A stretch of DNA of 64,000 nucleotides from Escherichia phage ECML-4: the sequence record JX128257; one strand, given 5' to 3'. The notes below the pieces were generated by a model. That model saw only the letters and a list, made by a program, of their open reading frames with translations. It had not been told where the DNA came from and did not search any database. The position numbers and the translations under genes are program-made. Shown here piece after piece: positions 3,424-63,800 of this stretch (position 1 is its first letter; every line of letters begins with the position of its first letter).

Positions 3424-5706
3424 ATGATTAACATCATAAAGCGGGACGGATCTTCTGTCCCCTTTGACATTGAAAAACTCCACACTGTTCTTGAACGTGC
3501 CTGTGAAGGATTAGAAGGAGTTTCGGTGTCTGAGGTGGAAGCAGCATCGAAGATTCAGTTCACAGACAATATGAAAACCGAACGCATTCAGGATATTATC
3601 ATCCAAGCGGCGGCTACATTGATTTCTGTAGAAAAACCCAACTACCAATATGTTGCTGCCCGTCTGAAATCGTATGACCTGCGCAAAGTCGTCTATGGGC
3701 GATACAAGCCACCTCATTTGCTTGATATATTCGCTAAAAACATCAAGCAGGGCGTTTATGATCGTGAATTCCTCGAACTCTATACGAAAGAAGAATTTGA
3801 AGAACTGAACACGGTCATCAATCACAAACGCGACAAGAATTTTACTTGGGCGGCTATGGGCCAGCTCACGCAAAAATATCTTTTGCGCGATCGCTCAGCA
3901 GACAGCAAAGTATATTACGAAACGCCTCAAGTCATGTATATGGCGATCGCGATGGCCCTGTTCTCTGCATGGGATAAAGAAACTCGCCTGACGATGGTGA
4001 AGAAATTTTATGAATACGCCAGTACAGGTAAATTCAGTCTTCCAACACCCATCATGTCCGGCGTTCGTACCCCAACCCGCCAATTCAGTTCTTGTGTTCT
4101 TATCAAAACCGGTGACACTTTGGACTCAATCAATGCTACAGCCAAAAGTATTGTTGATTATGTATCCAAACGCGCTGGGATCGGATTTGATGTCGGAGCA
4201 ATTCGTGGCATCGGTAGCCCTATCCGAAAAGGTGAAATGGTGCACACAGGTCTGGTTCCTTTCATAAAATATCTGACTGGGGCATTAAAGTCTTGCTCTC
4301 AAGGCGGTATTCGTGGCGGATCAGCAACTTGCTATATCCCTATCTGGCATTATCAATTTGATGATGTTGTGGTCCTGAAGAACAACCGTGGTCTTGAAGA
4401 GAACCGTGAACGCCGTATCGACTATGGTATTCAGATCAACCGCGTCATGTTCGAACGTCTGGTGAACAAACAACCCCTGTATTTGTTCGATCCGAAAGAC
4501 AACCGCGATATGTACGAAGCGTTTTTCGCAGATGTCGATAAGTTCCGTACCCTGTACGACAACATGGTCAAAGCTGCTGATGCTGGTTTGGTTCGTGCCA
4601 AGAAGATGAATGCGGAAGAAGTATTCCAGATGTTGTTGGATCAGCGTTCAGATACAGGCCGCATCTACATCGCGTTTGTCGACCACATGAACCAGTACAG
4701 CCCATTCAATCTAGACACAATCTATAGTTCTAATCTGTGTCTGGAGATTGCGCTTCCTACTCGTGAATTCCAACAGTACGACGATGAAGAAGGTCGGATC
4801 GCTCTGTGTACTTTGGCCTCTTTTAACCTGACGGCGTTTGAAGACCCGACAGAAATGGAAGACGTTGCATATGTCTTGGTTTCGGCTTTGGATATGCTGC
4901 TGGAATACCAAGATTATCCAGCACGTCAAGCCCGTCTGGCTGTAGAAGAATATCGTCCTCTGGGTATCGGTGTCGTCAACGTCGCGCATTTCTTCGCCAA
5001 GAACTTCACGGGGTATGGATCTCCTGTTGGGTTAGAACTCCTGGACAAGTGGATGGCGCACCTGCATTTCTATCTGGTAAAGGCTTCGAATCGTCTGGCC
5101 ATGAAGTTTGGGGCATGTAAGAAGGAAACCATTCATCGTTCTGGTAAGATAACAGCCGACCTTCAACCGTTGCCGCTGGATATCCTCCCCAATGGTAAAA
5201 AGCCGGAAGGTATGGCATACGGCCTTGACTGGGACGGTTTGAAAGACTCTCTGCGTTGCCATGGTATCCGCAATGCTACTCTCTTGGCGATAGCACCAAC
5301 TGAAAGCTCCTCTCAGGTGCTGAACGCCACGAATGGTATAGAGCCACCCAAAGGCCTCATCAGTATCAAAGGCAGCAAGGATGGCGTCTACAAGCAGATC
5401 GTTCCGGACGTTGAAACCCTTGGTCCTCTATATGACCTGAAATGGAATCTGTCTTGTATCGACTATTTGAAAACAGCGGCGGTCGCCCAGCGTTGGGTTG
5501 ACCAATCCATCAGCGTTAATACACATTATGATCCAGAGAAATTCCCAGACGGGAAGATCCCGCGCTCTCTCATGATGCAGGATATTCTGTCTTTCTACAT
5601 GTGGGGTGGTAAAACTCTGTATTACAACACCAACAAAGACTCTAAGGAAGATGAAGAGTTGAAACAAATTGAAGATCCGAATCACTGTGACACCTGTGTT
5701 GTCTGA
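3424..5706 (+). CDS. nrdA: ribonucleotide reductase class Ia large subunit
   Basis: 760 aa; N-terminal ATP-cone (MINIIKRDGSSVPFDIEKL) and alpha-chain length and architecture; GAGGA SD. Confidence 0.95.
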   Translation: MINIIKRDGSSVPFDIEKLHTVLERACEGLEGVSVSEVEAASKIQFTDNMKTERIQDIIIQAAATLISVEKPNYQYVAARLKSYDLRKVVYGRYKPPHLLDIFAKNIKQGVYDREFLELYTKEEFEELNTVINHKRDKNFTWAAMGQLTQKYLLRDRSADSKVYYETPQVMYMAIAMALFSAWDKETRLTMVKKFYEYASTGKFSLPTPIMSGVRTPTRQFSSCVLIKTGDTLDSINATAKSIVDYVSKRAGIGFDVGAIRGIGSPIRKGEMVHTGLVPFIKYLTGALKSCSQGGIRGGSATCYIPIWHYQFDDVVVLKNNRGLEENRERRIDYGIQINRVMFERLVNKQPLYLFDPKDNRDMYEAFFADVDKFRTLYDNMVKAADAGLVRAKKMNAEEVFQMLLDQRSDTGRIYIAFVDHMNQYSPFNLDTIYSSNLCLEIALPTREFQQYDDEEGRIALCTLASFNLTAFEDPTEMEDVAYVLVSALDMLLEYQDYPARQARLAVEEYRPLGIGVVNVAHFFAKNFTGYGSPVGLELLDKWMAHLHFYLVKASNRLAMKFGACKKETIHRSGKITADLQPLPLDILPNGKKPEGMAYGLDWDGLKDSLRCHGIRNATLLAIAPTESSSQVLNATNGIEPPKGLISIKGSKDGVYKQIVPDVETLGPLYDLKWNLSCIDYLKTAAVAQRWVDQSISVNTHYDPEKFPDGKIPRSLMMQDILSFYMWGGKTLYYNTNKDSKEDEELKQIEDPNHCDTCVV

Positions 5707-5737
5707 TTAGGTCTATACCACACAATCGTTTAATATC

Positions 5738-5765
5738 AGGGGTGATTCGTCACCCCTTATTCATC
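5738..5765 (+). terminator. intercistronic hairpin between nrdA and nrdB (terminator-like, weak T-run)
   Basis: AGGGGTGA-TTCG-TCACCCCT 8 bp stem directly before the nrdB SD. Confidence 0.5.
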
Positions 5766-5776
5766 AGGAAAGAAAC

Positions 5777-6880
5777 ATGAACGAACAAAAGCAATTCTCA
5801 GTATTCGATCCATCTTCAAATAATACAGGACTGCCATTCTTTGGCGACCCTGTAAGTATCCAGCGTTATGACAAAGTGGCTTGGCCTTTTGTTCAAAAAT
5901 GGTATGAAAAAGGCCTCAGCCAATTCTGGCGTCCGGAAGAAGTGGATGTCACCAAAGACAAAGCGGACTTTGCCACTCTATCCGCTGCGGAACAACACAT
6001 CTACTTCAGCAACCTGAAACGCCAAACCATGCTGGACTCTATTCAGGGCGCTGCTCCGTTCGAAGCGTTTGGCCCGTGGGCATCAACACCAGAAGCGCAA
6101 TTTGCTATTCTGGAATGGACGCGCCAAGAAGCCATCCACTCACTATCTTACACGCATATCCTTCGTAACACAGTGAATGATCCTGGTATCGTTTTTGACC
6201 ATGTTCTGGACGTTCAGGAGATCGTAGATTGCGCCGGACAGATCAGCGTATACTACGACGACATGGTGCGTTACAGCGGGATGCGTATGGCTGGACGCGC
6301 GTTCACCCGTGAAGACATCATGAACGCCAAGCGTGCATTCTGGCGTGCTCTGTTTGCTGCCAACTCCCTCGAAGGCGTCCGTTTCTATGTTTCATTTGCG
6401 TGTTCTTGGGCATTCATGCAATTCCTCAACAAAATGGAAGGCAATGCCAAGATTATTCGCCAGATCGCTCGTGACGAGCAAGATCACCTCATTCTGACAC
6501 AGACTTTCCTGAATCGTCTTCCGTTGTTAGACCCTGATTTTGGTATCATCCGTGAAGAACTGCGTGGCGAAATGACCCAGATGTATGTGGATGTGGTCAA
6601 CCAAGAGAAAGAGTGGGCGAACTATCTGTTCAAAGACGGATCCATGCTGGGTCTGAACGCAAATATCTTACACCAAATGGTTGATTGGCTAGCAACACAT
6701 CGTATGGGCGCGATTGGCCACCCGTACCCTGGGCAAGCCCGTAAAGACAATCCGGTTCCATGGATAAATGAGTGGCTAGATAATAAAACAATGCAATACG
6801 CATTACAGGAAGCGGAAGCCCCTGATTATCTGACTGGTGTCCTTACTGGATCAGTCTCCGACGGTCTGAAATTTGTTTAA
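5777..6880 (+). CDS. nrdB: ribonucleotide reductase class Ia small subunit
   Basis: 367 aa, immediately after nrdA, ferritin-like beta-subunit pattern. Confidence 0.9.
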   Translation: MNEQKQFSVFDPSSNNTGLPFFGDPVSIQRYDKVAWPFVQKWYEKGLSQFWRPEEVDVTKDKADFATLSAAEQHIYFSNLKRQTMLDSIQGAAPFEAFGPWASTPEAQFAILEWTRQEAIHSLSYTHILRNTVNDPGIVFDHVLDVQEIVDCAGQISVYYDDMVRYSGMRMAGRAFTREDIMNAKRAFWRALFAANSLEGVRFYVSFACSWAFMQFLNKMEGNAKIIRQIARDEQDHLILTQTFLNRLPLLDPDFGIIREELRGEMTQMYVDVVNQEKEWANYLFKDGSMLGLNANILHQMVDWLATHRMGAIGHPYPGQARKDNPVPWINEWLDNKTMQYALQEAEAPDYLTGVLTGSVSDGLKFV

Positions 6881-54546: not shown

Positions 54547-57288
54547 TTATGCCCCGAGAATACGTTTTGAAATAGCCTTCACAAATCTAGTGGCATCTTC
54601 AATCGCATTATGCGCCGTTGGCTGATATTTTGACATCATGAATTTCACCAAACGATGACATTCAACTCGGTATCGGTTTTTGGCCTTTTGCTTTTGAGAT
54701 ATAGTGCTAGTGACCTTTATCTCATCAAATCCTTCAGCAGTTAATTTTTCATTCAATAAATCAACAACTTGAGTTAACTGGTTACAGGCGCGGAAAAATC
54801 TCGTAGTTGAGAAAGGCATTTCTATACGATAATGTAATTCCTCAACAGCCTTGCGGAAATAACCGTACCCCGATCCAGACGGGTTTCGTTTGGCCAGCAT
54901 ACGAACAACCTTCCATTCTTCTTCAGTGATTTGTTGTTTCGCATAACCGATGATTGCTTTTGCCCTGTGTTGATGATGAGCATAGCCATCCGTAACTTCT
55001 CCATGGGAATCAATCAACAGCTTGGCACCATAATCAATGCGATGAGACATGATGTTTATGCCCTTGCGAAGTTTCAGGAGTTTCTTAGATTCAAGCGCCT
55101 GAAATTCATCTTTATAATGCTCAAGCAACATATCAAACACTGCGTCAATGGGGATGAATACTTCTGGGAATTTCTTCATCATCGGAACAGATTTACGACG
55201 CGCAAGAACGATTGTTGGATGCGCTCCCAGCAAATCAAACATGTTTTCGTTTCCATTCTCGCCGAACTTCGTTCTTTCCATCGCTTCACGCAAATGTCCA
55301 GCCGTGGATTGTCGTAAGGTATTACCATGAATTTTATGGATACCTTCTCGGCCAGATACTTCGATATATACGATCTTTTTGCCTGAATCAATAATATCTG
55401 AAACGGTTTTTCCATCCAATTCATAAACGCTGTCGAAGTTAAATGAATTGTAATGGAAACTAAACATCCCAGGATCTTTTTCAACGGTCGGGCGAACATA
55501 TTCCATTTCATGCATGAAATAAACTTCATCCGGATTGAATAAATCGCCAAAAACCTCGATCAGTTTATCGGCAAAGACCAGGTAGTCCGGTGTTGTTTCT
55601 TGTACACCGATCCATGATTCAAAATAAGACTTCAATTCCTCATGGTTGGTGAATGATTCTTTATGTGCCGCCAGCTGATTCCGATTACTGAAATAATTTT
55701 CATTCGGTTTGACGACGATAACGACATTGAAGTTATTACGTGCTGTTTGTATCTTCAGGTTTCGAGCACGATTCGAGTTATCAATAATAACAGCAATTTT
55801 TGATTTAGATTTCAACCAATTTCCGACAGAGTTCACATAAATGCTGTCGTGTACTACACCGTCGTCGTGTACTTCAATTTCGTAAGGACTACCAATAGAC
55901 CGGAAAGGTGCATCCACAGAGTAATCGCGCACGACGTCCGGCGCTCCGATATAACGGAACGTGCCTTTGTAGAAACGGTTATCTGCAGGAAATTCTCGCT
56001 CCACTAATTTACGGAAACCGCTACCGAACATATCGGTCAATTGAGCCTTCTTCATATAAAGCATAAGAGGACCCATAGATTCGGCCTGGCGAAGTTCATA
56101 CATCTTCGCCTGCATAATATTGTCAGCCACATATTTGAACACTCGGTTCAGGCTTTCACGGGTGAACTCGTCATATGACAAGTCTTCACGTGATGGAGGA
56201 ACATTCAATTCTCCAAGTTCAAAGAATGTATAGGAACTCGGGAATTTCTCCAGCACCGAACGTATTTCAGAATCCAATTGCTCAAGATCTATCGGATAAG
56301 AAACCCCGCCCATAACAGCATAGTGGGTATTATCAGAATCAGACTTCGGCTGAATATACGTGTTGCCCACACGGTTTTCAAAATTGATGTCCTGCCAGCG
56401 GAAAGAATAACTGGCATTTTCAACCTTCGGGCGCATTGATGGGCGCATAACTCGACCCAGACGGACCAGTTCTTGTTCAAATGCAGTAAATCGCTGATTC
56501 TTTACAGGCACTTTAACAGTCAGACCATTGAACTCATCAGTGTCTTCTGGTTTCGGATCACGGGTGTCCAAATCCTTGGTGATCAGGTCCACAGTAGGAA
56601 TCCTGTCCGCATTCAGATACATAAGGAAGCGATACAGTTTACCTTCATAACGACTTTCTACAGTAAATGAGTCCGACACTGCAAATGGGGATTTAGAACC
56701 CAGCCCGAACGCGCCGATCTGCCCGTCGTCGTCCTCTTTGGTGCTATGGAAGAGTGTTGTGTACAAACCAGGTCCACGGATGATCTCGCCGTCCTCAGCG
56801 CGGAATACCAACACCCCATTGTAATAACCAGGCGTCCCAATAACAGCAGTGCTGTCAGGGATTTCATCTTCCTTCACAACAATGTTGCCTTCGACAAGCA
56901 CTTCATCTTCCCGCGCTGCGATAGGTTCACCGATAATCATTTCTAACGGAAGGCCAATCCCATAATCCTTGATTTCCAGCCATGGTTCCATAACATCAGG
57001 TAAATGGACCACAACGGGCGTCCCTTTGGGAGCAAGATGCTTGCTGTATCTTTGGGGCATAGGGGTAAGAGGGGCATAATGGGACGGCAACCAACGCTGT
57101 TGGCGATCACGCATATTATGCGAGTCTATACCGTTACATAACGTCTCACGCAAAGATGCGGCCTCTTTATATTTGTAGAGACTTGAGAACAATGTTTCAA
57201 ATAATTTATCCGTCATCTTGACATTAAATGTCTGTCCGACGATAGTGGAAGAAGAGCGCACGAAATGCTCAGACTTGCGCATTTTCAT
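54547..57288 (-). CDS. rIIA: rIIA-like protein with GHKL-type ATPase domain
   Basis: 913 aa; GHKL motifs (DYGIGLP, GAFGLGSKSPF) in the N-terminal third, as in T4 rIIA. Confidence 0.65.
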   Translation of the reverse strand: MKMRKSEHFVRSSSTIVGQTFNVKMTDKLFETLFSSLYKYKEAASLRETLCNGIDSHNMRDRQQRWLPSHYAPLTPMPQRYSKHLAPKGTPVVVHLPDVMEPWLEIKDYGIGLPLEMIIGEPIAAREDEVLVEGNIVVKEDEIPDSTAVIGTPGYYNGVLVFRAEDGEIIRGPGLYTTLFHSTKEDDDGQIGAFGLGSKSPFAVSDSFTVESRYEGKLYRFLMYLNADRIPTVDLITKDLDTRDPKPEDTDEFNGLTVKVPVKNQRFTAFEQELVRLGRVMRPSMRPKVENASYSFRWQDINFENRVGNTYIQPKSDSDNTHYAVMGGVSYPIDLEQLDSEIRSVLEKFPSSYTFFELGELNVPPSREDLSYDEFTRESLNRVFKYVADNIMQAKMYELRQAESMGPLMLYMKKAQLTDMFGSGFRKLVEREFPADNRFYKGTFRYIGAPDVVRDYSVDAPFRSIGSPYEIEVHDDGVVHDSIYVNSVGNWLKSKSKIAVIIDNSNRARNLKIQTARNNFNVVIVVKPNENYFSNRNQLAAHKESFTNHEELKSYFESWIGVQETTPDYLVFADKLIEVFGDLFNPDEVYFMHEMEYVRPTVEKDPGMFSFHYNSFNFDSVYELDGKTVSDIIDSGKKIVYIEVSGREGIHKIHGNTLRQSTAGHLREAMERTKFGENGNENMFDLLGAHPTIVLARRKSVPMMKKFPEVFIPIDAVFDMLLEHYKDEFQALESKKLLKLRKGINIMSHRIDYGAKLLIDSHGEVTDGYAHHQHRAKAIIGYAKQQITEEEWKVVRMLAKRNPSGSGYGYFRKAVEELHYRIEMPFSTTRFFRACNQLTQVVDLLNEKLTAEGFDEIKVTSTISQKQKAKNRYRVECHRLVKFMMSKYQPTAHNAIEDATRFVKAISKRILGA

Positions 57289-57361: not shown

Positions 57362-57390
57362 ATAGAAAAAAGCCTCCAAAAGGAGGCTTA
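57362..57390 (-). terminator. rho-independent terminator (minus strand)
   Basis: AGCCTCC-TTTT-GGAGGCT stem followed by TTTTTTCTATT on the minus strand. Confidence 0.7.
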
Positions 57391-57951: not shown

Positions 57952-58126
57952 GGATCTTGGCCTTTTTAGGACGACTAACGGAAGGACGGGCATGCCCAGG
58001 CTCCCCAGGGGTACAACCTTGGGCATAACGTTGGTCATCCCAGAGGCGTCCTTTGTGAGACATATCTTCAGCCATCGCGGACAAGGCGAGGGTTGCTACA
58101 GCCGCAGCAGATAATGGTTTAGACAT
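57920..58126 (-). CDS. small protein with signal-peptide-like N-terminus and Lys-rich C-terminal tail
   Basis: ATG at 58126 with AGGAGA SD. Confidence 0.35.
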   Translation of the reverse strand: MSKPLSAAAVATLALSAMAEDMSHKGRLWDDQRYAQGCTPGEPGHARPSVSRPKKAKIHGKNKKKRRK

Positions 58127-58565
58127 CTGTTTCTCCTTTTGCTGCATATGCCAGTGCTTTTACAATCATCACGGCCAATCCGATTGGGTCGCACGTACCT
58201 TCGAATTCTTGTTCTAAAATCTCACGTATTTCATCAGAAGATTGTACTTCGGAGCAGTTCTTGCTCTGTCGACGTTGTTCTTGCTCAACGAGGTCTTTGA
58301 ACAGAAGGTCTTTGAAAGAATACTCATCGAAGTTTTCCAGATACTGCTGGATACTTGGTTGTTTCGCATCCATCGTTCTACGCAGATTGCTGATAGTTGT
58401 ACTCGCCTGTTCGCGGTGTTTGTTCATAACGGAAAAGTTCACGGGTTTTCCCCAAGCGTTCGTCACTGTGTTGGAACATACTTGTCCGAAGAGATCTTGG
58501 AAGGCGTCATCCAGATGAATCAGCGCGGCGGCCAGTTCATCATAAGTTGGTTTTTGAGCAGTCAT
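58119..58565 (-). CDS. hypothetical protein
   Basis: ORF. Confidence 0.45.
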   Translation of the reverse strand: MTAQKPTYDELAAALIHLDDAFQDLFGQVCSNTVTNAWGKPVNFSVMNKHREQASTTISNLRRTMDAKQPSIQQYLENFDEYSFKDLLFKDLVEQEQRRQSKNCSEVQSSDEIREILEQEFEGTCDPIGLAVMIVKALAYAAKGETDV

Positions 58566-58945
58566 TTTCGTTTATTCCTATTTTTAGATTTCTTGGCTTG
58601 ACGTTTATGCTGAGCGGCTCCATACAAGCGCGGAGGCTTTTGATAACGCTGTGAGGCAATTATATCCCTGTAGTCGGCTTCGGCTTCACAGCAAGAAACA
58701 TCCGTTCTTCGTAATTGCGCGACCGCTTGTGACACCAGCATTTTACGTTCGCTTTCTACCAGGTCATCACAAATTATCATGCGCTCGCCTGGTTCACAAC
58801 GACGTTTGGGAATGTCGTCAACACTGATGCATTCCACCTCAACGCCTTTCAATTTTTCTTGAAGGATGATGGCCATAGTACGAGCGCCCACCCCTCCTCC
58901 AATAATTGCAATCTTTCTTGGCTTGTCAGACATAATACATTCCAT
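58562..58945 (-). CDS. hypothetical protein with Gly-rich dinucleotide-binding-like motif and basic tail
   Basis: IAIIGGGVGA motif; Lys/Arg-rich C-terminus. Confidence 0.45.
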   Translation of the reverse strand: MECIMSDKPRKIAIIGGGVGARTMAIILQEKLKGVEVECISVDDIPKRRCEPGERMIICDDLVESERKMLVSQAVAQLRRTDVSCCEAEADYRDIIASQRYQKPPRLYGAAQHKRQAKKSKNRNKRK

Positions 58946-58995: not shown

Positions 58996-59421
58996 TTAGT
59001 CTTTGGATTCTACTTTATCACCACGCAGATCCTGGACGGGTTTGCCATCCGGCGACATGATGTAGATGGTGTTAATTGTTTCAAACCAAGACAGTTCATC
59101 AACTCCTTCAGTGTATGGAGTTACCGGAACTGAAGTTTTGATATGATCACCAACGTTATTTGGGGCACCATCAGACTTCAGCACTGGCTCCAGGAAGGCG
59201 AAACGACCATTTGGATAAATCACCCCGCCTTTGAACATGCGAATCTTCTTGCGAGGGTTGTTAGCCTCACCAAGACACACCACCAGATGATGAATCATCT
59301 CAGGGCGGGTGAGCAACGTGTCGTCACGGATGATCCCCTGTTTGATAGCAGAGATCACCACTTCATCCAACAAAGCCTGTTGCTGTTCCAGAGTCAAAGA
59401 TTCAGTAAGTTTCACGCTCAT
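58996..59421 (-). CDS. hypothetical protein
   Basis: ORF. Confidence 0.45.
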   Translation of the reverse strand: MSVKLTESLTLEQQQALLDEVVISAIKQGIIRDDTLLTRPEMIHHLVVCLGEANNPRKKIRMFKGGVIYPNGRFAFLEPVLKSDGAPNNVGDHIKTSVPVTPYTEGVDELSWFETINTIYIMSPDGKPVQDLRGDKVESKD

Positions 59422-59424
59422 GGT

Positions 59425-59994
59425 CTAACCTTTGAAATTAATTGGGTTCTGAACCCCAGAGTCAAACGCGGCCTGGGTACGGGTATCGCTCACCACCTGA
59501 CAGGTCTTTTCGAGATCGATGCGAGGGTATCCAAAGATGCCAGCAATGACAGATCCAGGGAACTGGCCGAGTTTGGTTTCATAGATAGCACACGCATCTA
59601 ATTTCTTTGTCTGGCTGATACGGAATTCATCACGTCCTGAACTGATGACCACCTGAATTTCTTTGTACAGGCTTGAATCAAACTGGATGTTCTGTTCCTG
59701 GATCCATTGCATAACCGCCTTTGAACCATCAGCACCATAACGACCCTGGAAAGTATCTTTGATCACTTCTTTCAGACCGTCTTTGTACAGGCCAGGTATC
59801 TGAGCCGTCTCTTGTACTTTGTTTGTATAGTTGCTCAGATGGTTTTCAGAATCTTTATTGAACTTTTTGACTTGCTGTTCAATACGATTGAAATCATTGA
59901 AATAACTGACGAAACTACCAACACCGATTACAACAAAAGCCAGAATCGCCAAACCGATGATCCAACCAATTGAAATACCTTTACGCTGCGACAT
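59425..59994 (-). CDS. LemA-family membrane protein (putative)
   Basis: N-terminal TM anchor and C-terminal FPGSVIAGIFGY motif resembling the LemA signature. Confidence 0.5.
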   Translation of the reverse strand: MSQRKGISIGWIIGLAILAFVVIGVGSFVSYFNDFNRIEQQVKKFNKDSENHLSNYTNKVQETAQIPGLYKDGLKEVIKDTFQGRYGADGSKAVMQWIQEQNIQFDSSLYKEIQVVISSGRDEFRISQTKKLDACAIYETKLGQFPGSVIAGIFGYPRIDLEKTCQVVSDTRTQAAFDSGVQNPINFKG

Positions 59995-60009
59995 CTTTAC
60001 TTCCTCTTG

Positions 60010-61119
60010 TTAAAACAAACGTTTGTAAGTGCGACCATTGTACTGCATATGGCCTAATATGAAAATTGCGGTAAACGGAACACAACCTAATAAAACGACG
60101 ATAATCACTTCCCATGTCTTGAGGTCACGCCATTTCAGATACTCCATTTCCTTCATTTCAACACGGTTATAGCCTTTGCTGATATTGACTGCAACTTCTT
60201 GGAATACTGATATCCCCATGGGTTTGCCAGTCAATGAAAGACCGTTTCGGGAATGAAGTTCCATGTTATTCATCCCATCAGCAAATGACGTGGATTTACC
60301 CCAATTGATTTTCATATCCTTCGATATGTCAGTAACCACAATGACATCGTTCTTTTTACCACCAGACCATGCATATAGCAGCCCCTGAAAATATTCCACA
60401 GGCTGGCCAGAAGTCACTACCCACACGATATTGACCTGACGTGATGCCCCCAATGTTTTCAAAGTGTTGTTCAGATAATCATTCCAATAATCAACGGGAA
60501 TATCCATCCCTGACATATTCAGAACACGAGTCACCCGATAATAATCATACACCCTTGGATATGACGGGATATGGTCTTTGAACTTCTCAGCGAATTGTTG
60601 GTCAGATTTGGAGAATAAAGAATCCTTGTTCCCTAGAACATAGTTCATATATGCATGTTCACGCGCTGCAGGTTCTCCGATTTTAACTTGCGCCCAACGC
60701 GGGGGCTCTGTAGTACCCTGACGATCAATACGGTCAATGCTCAGATCACCGACGGATGTTAATACGTCCCAATCAACGTCATAAGAGTGCTCATAGCACG
60801 TGCTGCAATGACGCGTTTGTGTACAAGATCGGTTATTTCCTGAACCAGAGCAAGAAGTTGTGTAATAGCACATACATTCATAAGAATGGCTACAACCCAC
60901 CTTATTTCGTTGCTTGTCAGTAACGTATCCATTCAAAATTTCAACATCTCCCGAACTACCCAGGGAAAATGCAGCGTATGCTCCCGCCTGGATAAGACAG
61001 GATAATACAACCACTATCGCAGTAGCAATTAGCGTTTCTTTTGGTTCATGGGTTTTGCGATGGTAAACCACGAACAATATGGCTAAAATAATAGGGACCA
61101 CAAACAGAAGGTAAATCAT
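60010..61119 (-). CDS. Cys-rich integral membrane protein (two N-terminal TM helices, one C-terminal TM helix)
   Basis: Hydrophobic termini flanking a Cys-rich domain (CSHSYECMCYYTTSCSGSG ... CSTCY). Confidence 0.5.
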   Translation of the reverse strand: MIYLLFVVPIILAILFVVYHRKTHEPKETLIATAIVVVLSCLIQAGAYAAFSLGSSGDVEILNGYVTDKQRNKVGCSHSYECMCYYTTSCSGSGNNRSCTQTRHCSTCYEHSYDVDWDVLTSVGDLSIDRIDRQGTTEPPRWAQVKIGEPAAREHAYMNYVLGNKDSLFSKSDQQFAEKFKDHIPSYPRVYDYYRVTRVLNMSGMDIPVDYWNDYLNNTLKTLGASRQVNIVWVVTSGQPVEYFQGLLYAWSGGKKNDVIVVTDISKDMKINWGKSTSFADGMNNMELHSRNGLSLTGKPMGISVFQEVAVNISKGYNRVEMKEMEYLKWRDLKTWEVIIVVLLGCVPFTAIFILGHMQYNGRTYKRLF

Positions 61120-61502
61120 AACACACCATCCACGAGTTGTTCCTTCGTCATACCAAGAAGTTGATTTTTATGACCTGATTCAGCTCCATTTTTCAACAAC
61201 AGATCCCAACGTTCTTCATGATACTGTGGAGTCATTGCATCGTCAAAAGAAACATGGTGGCGATGCATAATTGTTGCAACGGTATGAAGAACGATTGCTG
61301 TCGCTCTTTTTAAAGCACGTGTATCAGTGATATGGTCTTCATATTCAATACCCATCAAATCGAGTTCTTTCCGAATATATGCAATAGACAAATCACCTTC
61401 AGAATGCAATTTAACAATAGTCGCTTTCTTAGGATGTAACACGCCGTCTGTTTCTTTCATGAACAGATCGTACAAATATTGTTTGTATTCGGGGCGCATC
61501 AT
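61116..61502 (-). CDS. hypothetical protein
   Basis: ORF with start/stop overlap. Confidence 0.45.
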   Translation of the reverse strand: MMRPEYKQYLYDLFMKETDGVLHPKKATIVKLHSEGDLSIAYIRKELDLMGIEYEDHITDTRALKRATAIVLHTVATIMHRHHVSFDDAMTPQYHEERWDLLLKNGAESGHKNQLLGMTKEQLVDGVL

Positions 61503-61738
61503 CTCGTAATCCCTCCGGCACAGATAATATTCAGTTCACCGCGACGGAAACCGCCTTGCCCATCGTCCAACTTAGTCAGAGGTGTATGTGCATCTCGAAC
61601 TTTCTGAGCGAACTCTTCCGACACCACCAGATGACCCATCAGAGGAGTCTTTTCTTGTTTTGGGGTGGATTCAAAATAGTCACCGAACGTCGCTTCCATA
61701 TCCAGCACAGACATATCTTCAATTCGTTGCATTGCCAT
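61499..61738 (-). CDS. hypothetical protein
   Basis: ORF with AGGAAA SD. Confidence 0.45.
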   Translation of the reverse strand: MAMQRIEDMSVLDMEATFGDYFESTPKQEKTPLMGHLVVSEEFAQKVRDAHTPLTKLDDGQGGFRRGELNIICAGGITR

Positions 61739-61819: not shown

Positions 61820-61987
61820 TTACTTTTTCTTCAGCTCTTCCAGCTTGGCTTCAATTTGGTCCAGAATCTCTTTACCTTTCTGGACGATGGCTTCACCGTC
61901 TTGCGCGTGTTTACGAAAAACCAGAGCGCCAGCAATGAAACCAACAACCACGCCTGGGAGCGCATACACCAACAGATCTTGTAACAT
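61820..61987 (-). CDS. small single-pass membrane protein (55 aa) with its own late promoter
   Basis: ORF below the 60 aa track cutoff; GTGAGGAT SD; TATAAATA 31 nt upstream; one TM helix; terminator downstream. Confidence 0.4.
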   Translation of the reverse strand: MLQDLLVYALPGVVVGFIAGALVFRKHAQDGEAIVQKGKEILDQIEAKLEELKKK

Positions 61988-62025: not shown

Positions 62026-63261
62026 TCATCGTTTCAACAAAGACATGAGGTTTACACTGGTCGACTTCGGATTGTCATCTATCTTCCGGACGGGCATTTT
62101 CAGATTAGTGTAAACCTCAGATGGTTCCCAACGCGTACCCTGCTGCAGGTGCCAAATATGAAGAGGAACACCCGTCTCAAAGAACACAGGCATCTTCCAC
62201 TTCTGGACGCCAGGAACGTGCCCTGCAGGAGCTTTTTCGCATAACAAGGTATCTGGTAGCCAGAGGGAACGGGCTTCCCATAATGCCTTACAGGAGTACT
62301 CAGGCCAGATGCGTTCCATGTAGTCGATCTCATCCCAAGTACGCTCAGCATCCCACCCGATGTAACGAGTGTTTTTCAGACGGAAGAATTTCTTAAGCCA
62401 ACAAGCACCGGAAGTCTCAAAGTTCAAACGATTGATGAACGTGATGTGACCAAACTCGGCGACACAATCTTTGAATGCCTGTTCAAGATCAGCCTCAAGG
62501 ATGTCGCATTCTTCATCGGTGATAGGACAGCCGTTGATCTTTTTCTTTCCGTGCTTGGTCACCCAGTCGTCACGGTTTGACAAGAATGCCGCGCCGTTGC
62601 GGTTGGACTCACTACCATCACGGTCACGCAACATGAACCCAGGGACGTCGATCTGATACATGTTGCCGAATACCATGTTCAGGGCTTCCAGGAAGTTCCA
62701 GGCGCTCAGGCGACCGAAGTATTTCCATCCCATAGCCGTGTCCCATAGCTTAACGAATTGATCACTTTGCAGTTTAGTCTCCAACAACGGACGGAAAGCA
62801 TCCATCTGAGTACGACCAGCTAGCCAATCAATGTAGGACTGAACACACGGGATCATCTTCGATTTGCGATAGCGGCAATCAGTATCGAATCGCATACGCT
62901 CGAAGTTCAGGTTATACCAATCACAGAATCGCTTGAACTCTTGTGGTGACTGAGGCGGTACAGGAAACTCACTATAAATCGTCCATGGGCCAATCCCATT
63001 ATAACAACAGCCCCAAAGGAACGCCATCCAGATCTTGCGCTCGATCTTCTCAAGCTGTGTAATGCCTTCAGTGACTTCAATCGCATAATCCATCAGACGA
63101 ACTTGTTGGTTGTGTTCTTCCGTATACGACAGCGCCTCCACCCATGCTTTGAGCAGATACATCCGATTCTCTGGCTTACGATAATCGATTGACAAATCAA
63201 TTGGGTACTTCCATTCAGCCGGAGGCGTATAACCTGTCGGCATTTTAGATAGATGCGTCAT
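62026..63261 (-). CDS. hypothetical protein (411 aa, Trp/Cys-rich)
   Basis: Long ORF; no domain assignable by eye. Confidence 0.5.
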   Translation of the reverse strand: MTHLSKMPTGYTPPAEWKYPIDLSIDYRKPENRMYLLKAWVEALSYTEEHNQQVRLMDYAIEVTEGITQLEKIERKIWMAFLWGCCYNGIGPWTIYSEFPVPPQSPQEFKRFCDWYNLNFERMRFDTDCRYRKSKMIPCVQSYIDWLAGRTQMDAFRPLLETKLQSDQFVKLWDTAMGWKYFGRLSAWNFLEALNMVFGNMYQIDVPGFMLRDRDGSESNRNGAAFLSNRDDWVTKHGKKKINGCPITDEECDILEADLEQAFKDCVAEFGHITFINRLNFETSGACWLKKFFRLKNTRYIGWDAERTWDEIDYMERIWPEYSCKALWEARSLWLPDTLLCEKAPAGHVPGVQKWKMPVFFETGVPLHIWHLQQGTRWEPSEVYTNLKMPVRKIDDNPKSTSVNLMSLLKR

Positions 63262-63619
63262 CCTTCACCTCGGCTTCGAGTTGGATATCTTCAGGGTTTA
63301 AAACGGGCTGGCCCAAAGACCAAATTGGAAGGAACCGACGGTCATTGGATACTACCCAGATTTGCTTGGCGGTTTTCGTTTTTTCAGAAATATAATGCTG
63401 GGCATTAACCTGAGTCCGTGCCAGCCCAATTTGCCGCCATGCACCGAAATCTTTAGAAGATGGATTGGTGTTCAGCTGGAATTGGGGAATGATTTTATTC
63501 TGTTCCGGATAATATCGGACAGCGTTAATCATATTGGCATCGCCACGATAGTCAACAGCAATAGCAATGGCATTGCGTGGAATAAGAATTTTCATTTTAA
63601 TTCCTTTTGAAACTTTCAA
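63245..63619 (-). CDS. hypothetical protein
   Basis: ORF. Confidence 0.4.
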   Translation of the reverse strand: MKVSKGIKMKILIPRNAIAIAVDYRGDANMINAVRYYPEQNKIIPQFQLNTNPSSKDFGAWRQIGLARTQVNAQHYISEKTKTAKQIWVVSNDRRFLPIWSLGQPVLNPEDIQLEAEVKDDASI

Positions 63620-63800
63620 TTATGTTGTAAACGAACGGCGTTAATAAAGCAACACCGCCCGAATAATATAACGCGTAAACATTCAATATTTCGGTTGAGT
63701 CTAATTCAACGATGCCCAAATATTTCATAACACCGACAAGCATAGCTGAAAAGCACATCACCAGACCGACGAACACAAAATATTTAGACATCTTTTTCAT
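63597..63800 (-). CDS. small membrane protein
   Basis: 67 aa with two hydrophobic segments. Confidence 0.4.
   Translation of the reverse strand: MKKMSKYFVFVGLVMCFSAMLVGVMKYLGIVELDSTEILNVYALYYSGGVALLTPFVYNIIESFKRN

Follow-up and report, generated by a model that had tools for sequence, protein, structure and literature searches.

A mobile two-gene cassette encoding a divergent LemA protein and a TPM-domain membrane protein in Kuttervirus ECML-4 and other large virulent phages

The Two-Gene Locus

The DNA analyzed in this work (hereafter, the window) is a 64,000-nt stretch of Escherichia phage ECML-4 (sequence record JX128257), a ViI-like myovirus of the genus Kuttervirus, family Ackermannviridae. 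We studied two adjacent minus-strand genes in region 59425–61119, which encode a LemA-like protein and a membrane protein with a TPM domain (hereafter, the partner); together they are referred to as the cassette. All features are numbered on the window. The locus is organized as follows:

60010–61119, minus strand: gene of the TPM-domain membrane protein, 369 amino acids (aa), the upstream gene of the cassette; equivalent to Vi01_203 and CBA120 orf253; phrog_2087
59995–60009, minus strand: spacer of 15 nt containing the Shine-Dalgarno sequence GAGGAAG that serves the LemA-like gene
59425–59994, minus strand: gene of the LemA-like protein, 189 aa, the downstream gene of the cassette; equivalent to Vi01_204 and CBA120 orf254; phrog_1383

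The positions of the two open reading frames (ORFs) bear out the first-pass annotation of this DNA, in which two adjacent minus-strand genes with a gap of about 15 nt were described. As judged by inspection of the sequence, the Shine-Dalgarno sequence ahead of the LemA-like gene is strong, and the initiating ATG of the partner gene shares bases with the stop codon of the preceding gene (ATGA); this start is weak and coupled. The cassette is a translationally linked two-gene unit. Both ORFs are real genes rather than chance reading frames, because they belong to large families (1,401 representatives in public data when the LemA-like protein is clustered at 50% identity, at least 490 clusters at 90% identity for the partner) and match PHROG entries strongly (3e-85 and 8e-166, respectively). 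A DNA search with region 59000–61600 matched 244 phage records, with 98.8–99% identity to Salmonella phages SJ2 and Vi01, and at the protein level both products are 94–99% identical across Kuttervirus.

The 189-aa Protein Is a Divergent LemA

The product of the downstream gene consists of two parts:

59902–59970, minus strand: single N-terminal transmembrane (TM) anchor, aa ~9–31, predicted to have its N-terminus in the cytoplasm; in the structural model the helix starts at residue 9
59515–59901, minus strand: helical LemA-like domain, aa ~32–160, predicted to be periplasmic, with the core GRYGxDGS...QWIQEQN and the C-terminal FPGSVIAGIFGYP

The C-terminal FPGSVIAGIFGYP could be aligned with the LemA motif FPGVIFAKMFGF. 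When the single sequence was scanned against Pfam, no match to PF04011 was obtained at E ≤ 0.1, and the gathering threshold was not reached; more generally, neither cassette protein could be assigned to a family when its sequence alone was scanned with Pfam, NCBIfam, and PADLOC. Among relatives of the LemA-like protein, PF04011 was the commonest Pfam match (27/140, all below threshold, best E 6.5e-6). A profile of 48 family sequences run against PDB sequences ranked LemA structure 2ETD first, with a marginal score (E 0.0067). A profile built from the 140 sequences yielded by an exhaustive family search matched the same structure with an E-value of 3.8e-6, profile positions 30–158 corresponding to chain residues 10–155. 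We then collected authentic LemA proteins with the 2ETD sequence (41 aligned) and compared them with the 140-sequence family by hhalign. The two alignments matched with 97.8% probability (E 1e-12, 154 columns), the match beginning at the TM helix and reaching as far as the C-terminal FP..A..FGF motif. This profile search sustains the first-pass annotation, which had proposed a single-TM protein with a LemA-like C-terminal motif.

The overall architecture is also that of LemA: a short N-terminus, one TM segment, a helical domain of ~150 aa, and an FPxxxxAxxFGF end. As in bacterial LemA, there is one TM helix in every one of the 140 relatives. The AlphaFold model of the LemA-like protein (pLDDT 74.7) is all-helical, with extended helices. 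The motifs LQRRxDLIPNL...GYAxHE and ENYPxLKA, which are invariant in the 41 authentic LemA proteins, are replaced in the phage family. The 189-aa protein is, by sequence comparison, a divergent LemA that forms a separate branch of the superfamily, below the level recognized by Pfam. A LemA resemblance had already been noted by at least one annotator (in phage Guerrero, OP610151) and by UniRef.

Two further observations concern the N-terminal half of the protein. The PADLOC model of LeoBC, a component of Eleos, matched residues 9–114 with its positions 480–571 of 601 (E 2e-5); the match may reflect the composition of a TM helix followed by a long helix, or a true LemA-like module in LeoBC. Eleos is a dynamin-like defence system. 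Separately, the TM segment contains the sequence IGWII (residues 10–14, window positions 59953–59967, minus strand), which we take to resemble fMIGWII, the peptide from the N-terminus of Listeria LemA presented by H2-M3.

The 369-aa Partner Is a TPM-Domain Membrane Protein

The product of the upstream gene is built of four segments:

60958–61119, minus strand: N-terminal TM hairpin, aa 1–54, N-terminus predicted outside the cytoplasm, short K/R-rich loop predicted cytoplasmic
60640–60951, minus strand: Cys/His β-rich domain, aa ~57–160, predicted periplasmic, present only in the phage version
60130–60537, minus strand: α/β domain with the TPM fold, aa ~195–330, motif QVNIVWVV...Y...LLYAWSGGKKNDVIVV
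60037–60117, minus strand: C-terminal TM anchor, aa 335–361, followed by a short basic cytoplasmic tail

The first-pass annotation had depicted the partner as a Cys-rich multi-TM protein with two N-terminal and one C-terminal TM helices. Two predictions agree with this layout: Kyte-Doolittle analysis places TM segments at residues 1–19, 29–47, and 338–356, and the confident AlphaFold model (pLDDT 90.5) has helices at residues 2–20, 26–54, and 335–361. That description holds as far as it goes; what it missed is the TPM domain. In the model, residues ~195–330 form a central four-stranded β-sheet with flanking helices, as is characteristic of the TPM fold, although sequence identity to known TPM proteins in fold comparisons is just 9–17%. 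PF04536 was the commonest Pfam match among relatives of the partner (12/63, below threshold, best E 1.8e-4). In a Pfam scan the window protein itself gave no PF04536 match and did not reach the gathering threshold, and a sequence-profile search of PDB with the partner also returned no match. Comparison of the partner family with a single Thermotoga TPM sequence by hhalign gave a probability of 33.7% (E 4.4e-4) with the expected motif aligned: the partner stretch QVNIv.V...Y..aL...W.GGKKNDV.VV fell on the equivalent motif of the bacterial TPM protein. The partner is a TPM-domain membrane protein.

The Cys/His domain, for which no fold match was obtained when it was taken alone, is modeled by AlphaFold as strands 57–74, 79–91, 98–109, 114–121, and 124–128. 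Seven Cys residues are clustered between positions 76 and 108, and the conserved residues are C76, H78, C82, C84, C90, C99, C105, C108, and H111. These residues are lost in groups. C84 and C105 disappear jointly in 8/8 cases and C90 and C99 in 5/5, and relatives that lose one pair never lose the other; the third group, H78, C108, and H111, is absent as a whole in 2/2 relatives. Both Cys pairs are cross-strand neighbors in the predicted β2–β3 hairpin, where 84 + 105 = 90 + 99. Because of the joint-loss pattern and the cross-strand neighborhood, we infer two disulfides, C84–C105 and C90–C99, along with a Cys/His site that is possibly metal-binding or redox-active and is predicted to involve H78, C108, and H111, joined by C76 and/or C82.

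Predicted Membrane Topology

Charge distribution around the TM segments was used to predict the orientation of both proteins. Positive charges flanking the TM helix of the LemA-like protein amount to 2.3 on the N side and 0.95 on the C side, and the N side is the more positive one in 80% of 140 family members; by the positive-inside rule, phage and bacterial LemA alike are predicted to have a cytoplasmic N-terminus and a LemA domain outside the cytoplasm. Three TM helices are predicted in 61/63 members of the partner family. The loop between TM1 and TM2 contains 1.9 K/R per ~9.5 residues, the N-terminus is uncharged, and the C-terminal tail carries on average 3.85 K/R across the family. In these 61 proteins the TM1–TM2 loop and the C-tail are thus predicted to be cytoplasmic and the Cys/His and TPM domains periplasmic, so that the partner has the extracytoplasmic domain and C-terminal TM tether typical of TPM proteins.

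Both large domains of the partner and the LemA domain are therefore predicted to face the periplasm. The disulfide-type joint loss of Cys residues agrees with such a placement of the partner domains, and both observations favor the suggestion, made in the first-pass annotation, that the pair acts at the envelope. Since the soluble domains of the two proteins would lie in the same compartment, the topology also fits a predicted complex between them.

Distribution and Mobility of the Cassette

Matches to the LemA-like protein were obtained by tblastn in 500 phage records, and matches to the partner in 485; the two sets have near-identical counts of host genera. We inspected seven loci, those of ICP1, Acibel004, MadMel, Munch, DU_PP_V, AhSzq-1, and the window. 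In each, the partner gene comes first and the LemA-like gene second; the two genes abut or overlap in the other loci and are separated by the 15-nt spacer in the window. The two cassette families are the only ones common to all seven; a third conserved gene was sought across these loci and not found. The cassette is always surrounded by early or metabolic genes at the inspected loci and never lies in a structural module: in Acibel004 it adjoins nucleotide-metabolism genes, in T5-like phages it occupies the early/tRNA region, and in the window its neighbors include rIIA, the amino-acid:DNA transferase (ADDT) gene, and the DNA polymerase gene. A metagenomic protein of 553 aa joins a full-length partner, a short acidic linker, and a full-length LemA-like protein; it may represent a genuine fusion or a product of read-through in gene calling.

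Evidence of mobility comes from ICP1. The cassette is present in 8/82 ICP1 genomes, all of them 2017-DRC isolates, with flanks at least 99% identical to those of the other genomes. When 2017_DRC_106 is compared with 2018_Mat_159, the extra DNA at locus positions 3938–5541 coincides almost exactly with the cassette genes (3950–5543); the ICP1 cassette is a precise two-gene insertion/deletion. Its nearest DNA relative is found in Aeromonas phage vB_AdhM_TS9, at 71% identity. In 2017_DRC_106, more DRC-specific DNA lies just downstream of the cassette, at 5617–6541.

Carriers include Ackermannviridae, T5-like phages, one ICP1 lineage, Rak2-like and Erwinia jumbo phages, and Acinetobacter and Aeromonas phages. 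The LemA-like gene occurs on its own in Bacillus phage G, where the gene upstream of it is not a partner homologue, and in a Lak megaphage, where it stands alone. Horizontal transfer has carried the cassette, as a unit, into unrelated large virulent phages that infect Gram-negative bacteria. The cassette is found in essentially all ViI-like phages and is core to Ackermannviridae; given this, the 244 DNA-matching records, and the ~500 phage genomes, the first-pass view of the module as unusual in its setting does not stand.

Relationship to the Bacterial lemA-TPM Operon and Other Systems

In both Brevibacillus and Thermotoga (the source of the LemA in structure 2ETD, TM0961), a PF04536 gene comes directly after lemA, its start adjoining the stop of lemA. 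The TPM domain of these bacterial proteins is preceded by a signal peptide and followed by a TM helix and a Gly-rich tail. Pairing with a TPM-domain gene, a mark of LemA, is thus also seen in the phages, where the neighbor has the TPM fold, and the phage cassette is the viral counterpart of the bacterial lemA-TPM operon. Both consist of a single-pass LemA with a cytoplasmic N-terminus and an FP..A..FGF end and a C-terminally anchored extracytoplasmic TPM protein, encoded by adjacent or overlapping genes, with domains predicted on the outer face of the cytoplasmic membrane. The phage version differs in several respects. The order is TPM, then LemA, whereas in the bacterial operon LemA precedes TPM. 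Unlike its bacterial equivalent, the partner has a TM hairpin instead of a signal peptide, an additional Cys/His β domain of ~100 aa, and no Gly-rich cytoplasmic tail. In the phage LemA, the bacterial motifs LQRRxDLIPNLV and ENYPxLKA are missing, and the core is a different one, GRYGxDGS...QWIQEQN.

Outside this operon, TPM-fold proteins are found in several membrane systems. Characterized TPM proteins serve photosystem II, a respiratory supercomplex, and an acetylcholine receptor at the outward (lumenal or periplasmic) side of their membranes, and are non-essential accessory factors that confer fitness; the TPM literature holds no consensus function for the domain (bioRxiv 10.1101/2024.10.28.620569). 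They include TLP18.3/Psb32, which acts in photosystem II repair, MOLO-1, BA41/BA42, and the mycobacterial DUF5130 subunit, the TPM-fold subunit present in the M. smegmatis CIII2CIV2 supercomplex (6adq_J). Some members are reported to bind metal or to have phosphatase/ATPase activity. The phage partner is distinguished from all of these by its low identity and extra domains. Membrane stress induces both lemA and a TPM gene in F. columnare (PMC13236525). A connection of LemA/TPM genes with PspA gene neighborhoods found no confirmation in the literature searched.

Other envelope-maintenance-type auxiliary genes occur in the same classes of large phages, namely PspA/IM30 in Acibel004 and an SPFH-domain protein in Kutterviruses (seen in Sajous1). 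Unlike the cassette proteins, they belong to unrelated families, act on the cytoplasmic membrane face, and are unlinked in the genome. Like the cassette proteins, for which early expression and this location are predicted, T4 Imm and Sp are non-essential, early proteins of the inner membrane/periplasm of a large virulent phage. They are small single proteins (83 and 97 aa, respectively) with no similarity to the cassette proteins in sequence or architecture, and the functional likeness is hypothetical.

Dispensability of the Cassette and Its Database Labels

The genome of Salmonella phage Maynard (NC_022768), a viable, RefSeq-listed Kuttervirus species, carries a clean 1,357-bp deletion corresponding to window positions 59422–60778, with the junction at locus position ~2838–2841. 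The deletion takes the partner from residue ~115 on and the entire LemA-like gene; a 131-aa ORF with the N-terminal remnant of the partner (Maynard_8) is retained. In addition, 74 of the 82 ICP1 genomes are devoid of the cassette. Because of the Maynard deletion and the ICP1 genomes without it, the cassette is unnecessary for the formation of infectious particles. It is an accessory mobile unit, not a required part of the virion.

In databases, the family phrog_1383 is nevertheless labeled “virion structural protein”. The label originated in particle proteomics of ViI, as reported in PMC3184105, and from there was carried over to CBA120 and RefSeq. We rejected an essential structural role for the LemA-like protein on account of the Maynard and ICP1 absences and the fact that its gene never lies in a morphogenesis module. 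The assignment of the partner as a holin or “host lysis protein” was rejected as well, given its length of 369 aa, its periplasmic portion of 280 aa, and the lack of a constant lysis-gene neighbor; weak holin matches were seen for 2/63 partner relatives (E ≥ 0.027) and originated from TM segments. The records of DU_PP_V, FrontPhageNews (MW021754), and Guerrero (OP610151) appear to contain further annotation errors. Among them, LemA-like homologues bear the label “major capsid protein”, and small genes next to the Guerrero homologue are named “cytochrome c maturation protein”, “rIIB lysis inhibitor”, and “ATP dependent DNA ligase domain protein”. None of these labels is backed when the orthologues in the window are scanned with Pfam and PHROG.

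Genes around the Cassette

The cassette belongs to a long minus-strand gene string, in which it sits between the amino-acid:DNA transferase gene and rIIA; the string ends at the strong terminator at 57370–57389. Other features of the string and its surroundings are:

63597–63800, minus strand: small predicted membrane protein, 67 aa, in the same gene string
62026–63261, minus strand: amino-acid:DNA transferase gene, 411 aa (PF18724, E 3.2e-58)
61820–61987, minus strand: small predicted membrane protein, 55 aa, labeled “membrane protein” in phages selz and Guerrero
58562–58945, minus strand: DUF7231 gene (E 1.6e-73), downstream of the cassette
58119–58565, minus strand: DUF7181 gene (E 2.6e-82), downstream of the cassette
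57370–57389, minus strand: strong intrinsic-terminator-like hairpin, AAGCCTCC-TTTT-GGAGGCTT, then a T run; located between the cassette string and rIIA
54547–57288: rIIA, ~2 kb from the cassette in Kutterviruses

The hairpin at 57370–57389 is probably the end of the transcription unit that contains the cassette. In a scan for promoters and terminators, sites were no more frequent than in shuffled sequence, with the exception of this terminator. The amino-acid:DNA transferase belongs to the enzyme class behind the hypermodified thymidines of ViI-like phages; in the Guerrero record its orthologue is named alpha-glutamyl/putrescinyl thymine pyrophosphorylase. The DUF7231 protein has an N-terminal GGGVGA motif that resembles a dinucleotide-binding motif and gives weak Pyr_redox matches. 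The genes of the 55-aa and 67-aa membrane proteins do not accompany the cassette in other phages.

Proposed Role and Alternatives

We are highly confident that the cassette encodes a LemA and a TPM protein that face the periplasm and constitute an accessory mobile unit. The mechanism that we favor, conditioning of the host envelope, is proposed by analogy and much more tentatively. During infection, both proteins would insert into the host inner membrane and may form a periplasm-facing complex, with the LemA-like subunit in excess. By analogy with other TPM proteins, the complex would bind to a membrane complex, or to the membrane as such, and stabilize or modulate it. The envelope would stay intact and energized until programmed lysis, and the phage would gain fitness rather than an essential function. 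Envelope conditioning is suggested by the accessory roles of TPM proteins, the co-induction of lemA and TPM genes under stress, and the presence of other membrane-homeostasis genes in phages. The strong Shine-Dalgarno sequence of the LemA-like gene and the weak start of the partner fit an excess of the LemA-like subunit, as does the fact that mass spectrometry has detected the LemA-like protein but not the partner. Taking identity and mechanism together, we set the probability of this reading at roughly 0.5, which is a compromise figure.

Several points weigh against it. Neither window protein reaches the Pfam gathering threshold for LemA or TPM, and fold searches with the extended-helix AlphaFold model of the LemA-like protein gave no confirmation of a LemA fold. 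All three genome-reduced selz mutants present in the database, with genomes down to 134.5 kb, retain the pair (PMC9825161), so the cassette may matter more than the word “accessory” implies. The LemA-like protein has been reported from phage-particle preparations: its ViI orthologue is reportedly classed among 41 particle-associated proteins (PMC3184105), and Acibel004 ORF020 was identified in purified phage by 10 unique peptides covering 54.6% of its sequence (PMC4128745). Such detection could reflect true packaging. Further, the bacterial LemA-TPM pair is without an established function, which makes the analogy weak, and the timing of expression, predicted to be early or middle, is deduced from gene position alone, the promoter scan being uninformative.

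The main rival to envelope conditioning is superinfection exclusion, or protection from lysis from without, in which an early complex would block DNA entry by a secondary phage or its penetration of the peptidoglycan or membrane, like T4 Imm and Sp. The domains of both proteins are predicted to face the periplasm at the inner membrane, which is where the DNA of an incoming phage crosses, the genes sit in early-type regions, and the patchy presence in ICP1 (8/82), the horizontal spread, and the dispensability in the laboratory, as in Maynard, are typical of genes involved in competition. We still regard exclusion as unlikely: there is no homology to known exclusion proteins, and in this respect PHROG and PADLOC yielded nothing except the weak LeoBC match; the module descends from a bacterial operon of a housekeeping type; and it is core in Ackermannviridae and 94–99% identical across Kuttervirus, whereas exclusion genes usually diversify. 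The same patchy, accessory, and mobile distribution is typical of anti-defence genes, and the location of the complex would suit the neutralization of a membrane-disrupting abortive-infection or defence effector, or the masking of the envelope-stress signals that trigger it; the LeoBC match to the N-terminal half of the LemA-like protein points in this direction too. That match, however, covers a TM segment and a coiled-coil-like helix and may be due to composition only, and a core, highly conserved position in Ackermannviridae of many hosts is unlike most anti-defence genes, which are narrowly targeted. We consider a role in counter-defence improbable.

An equally improbable reading takes the particle data and the PHROG structural label at face value. 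A packaged LemA-like protein would enter the host membrane and aid DNA delivery, the partner being an assembly or maturation factor. The Acibel004 preparation, in which the TPM neighbor, ORF019, was undetected (PMC4128745, Table S6A), also held the phage PspA/IM30 (ORF066), an RNA ligase, and NAPRT (PMC4128745), which makes carry-over of membrane and cytoplasmic proteins likely. Acibel004 thus encodes a membrane-stress protein of its own, PspA/IM30. Cassette homologues are absent from the particle proteomes of LIMEstone1 (39 proteins) and Sajous1, and the partner, in contrast to the LemA-like protein, has never been reported in a phage-particle proteome; mass spectrometry of Erwinia jumbo phages was performed on crude lysates and is therefore uninformative about virion association. 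The position of the gene outside structural modules and the viability of phages without it (Maynard, 74/82 ICP1) speak against packaging as well, and virion assembly in the cytoplasm is hard to square with the predicted features of the pair: a single TM pass and a periplasmic domain in the LemA-like protein, and disulfides in its partner. The simplest reading of the particle data is that an abundant inner-membrane LemA-like protein co-purifies with membrane fragments. The first-pass annotation had named rejection of LemA membership together with a structural role of both proteins as the outcome that would overturn it; the LemA assignment was upheld, and only the LemA-like protein appears in particle proteomes. 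Modulation of lysis timing, through an effect of the pair on holin, spanin, or lysis inhibition, appears to us very improbable. The Vi01 record calls the partner (Vi01_203) “host lysis protein”, rIIA lies close to the pair in Kutterviruses, an endolysin gene is ~2 kb from it in DU_PP_V, and no holin was known for CBA120 when that phage was described (PMC3184105). Yet the size and large periplasmic portion of the partner resemble no holin, the proximity to rIIA or endolysin is absent in ICP1, Acibel004, MadMel, and Munch, and hosts are still lysed by phages without the pair.

Significance

LemA and TPM proteins rank with the most widely distributed membrane proteins of bacteria that have no assigned function. 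Our results show that phages have acquired a derived form of the LemA-TPM pair and that ~500 sequenced large virulent phages share it as a self-contained, circulating two-gene cassette; in the literature searched, we found no account of the TPM identity of the partner, of the equivalence to the bacterial operon, or of the breadth and mobility of the cassette. Three database labels, “virion structural protein”, “major capsid protein”, and “host lysis protein”, either lack support or are incorrect; for the partner, “TPM-domain membrane protein” is a suitable annotation. Several carrier phages are candidates for phage therapy or biocontrol, for which envelope-acting accessory genes are worth knowing.

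Near-isogenic natural pairs with and without the cassette exist (ICP1 DRC isolates versus canonical ICP1, Maynard versus other Kutterviruses) and could reveal the function of the module. A bolder and rather doubtful possibility is that the cassette represents a hitherto overlooked class of widely mobile phage envelope weapons, in which a bacterial membrane-maintenance operon was repurposed and equipped with a new disulfide/metal domain to block competing phages or membrane-acting immunity. If this were true, functional work on the phage cassette would also expose the role of bacterial LemA and TPM proteins.

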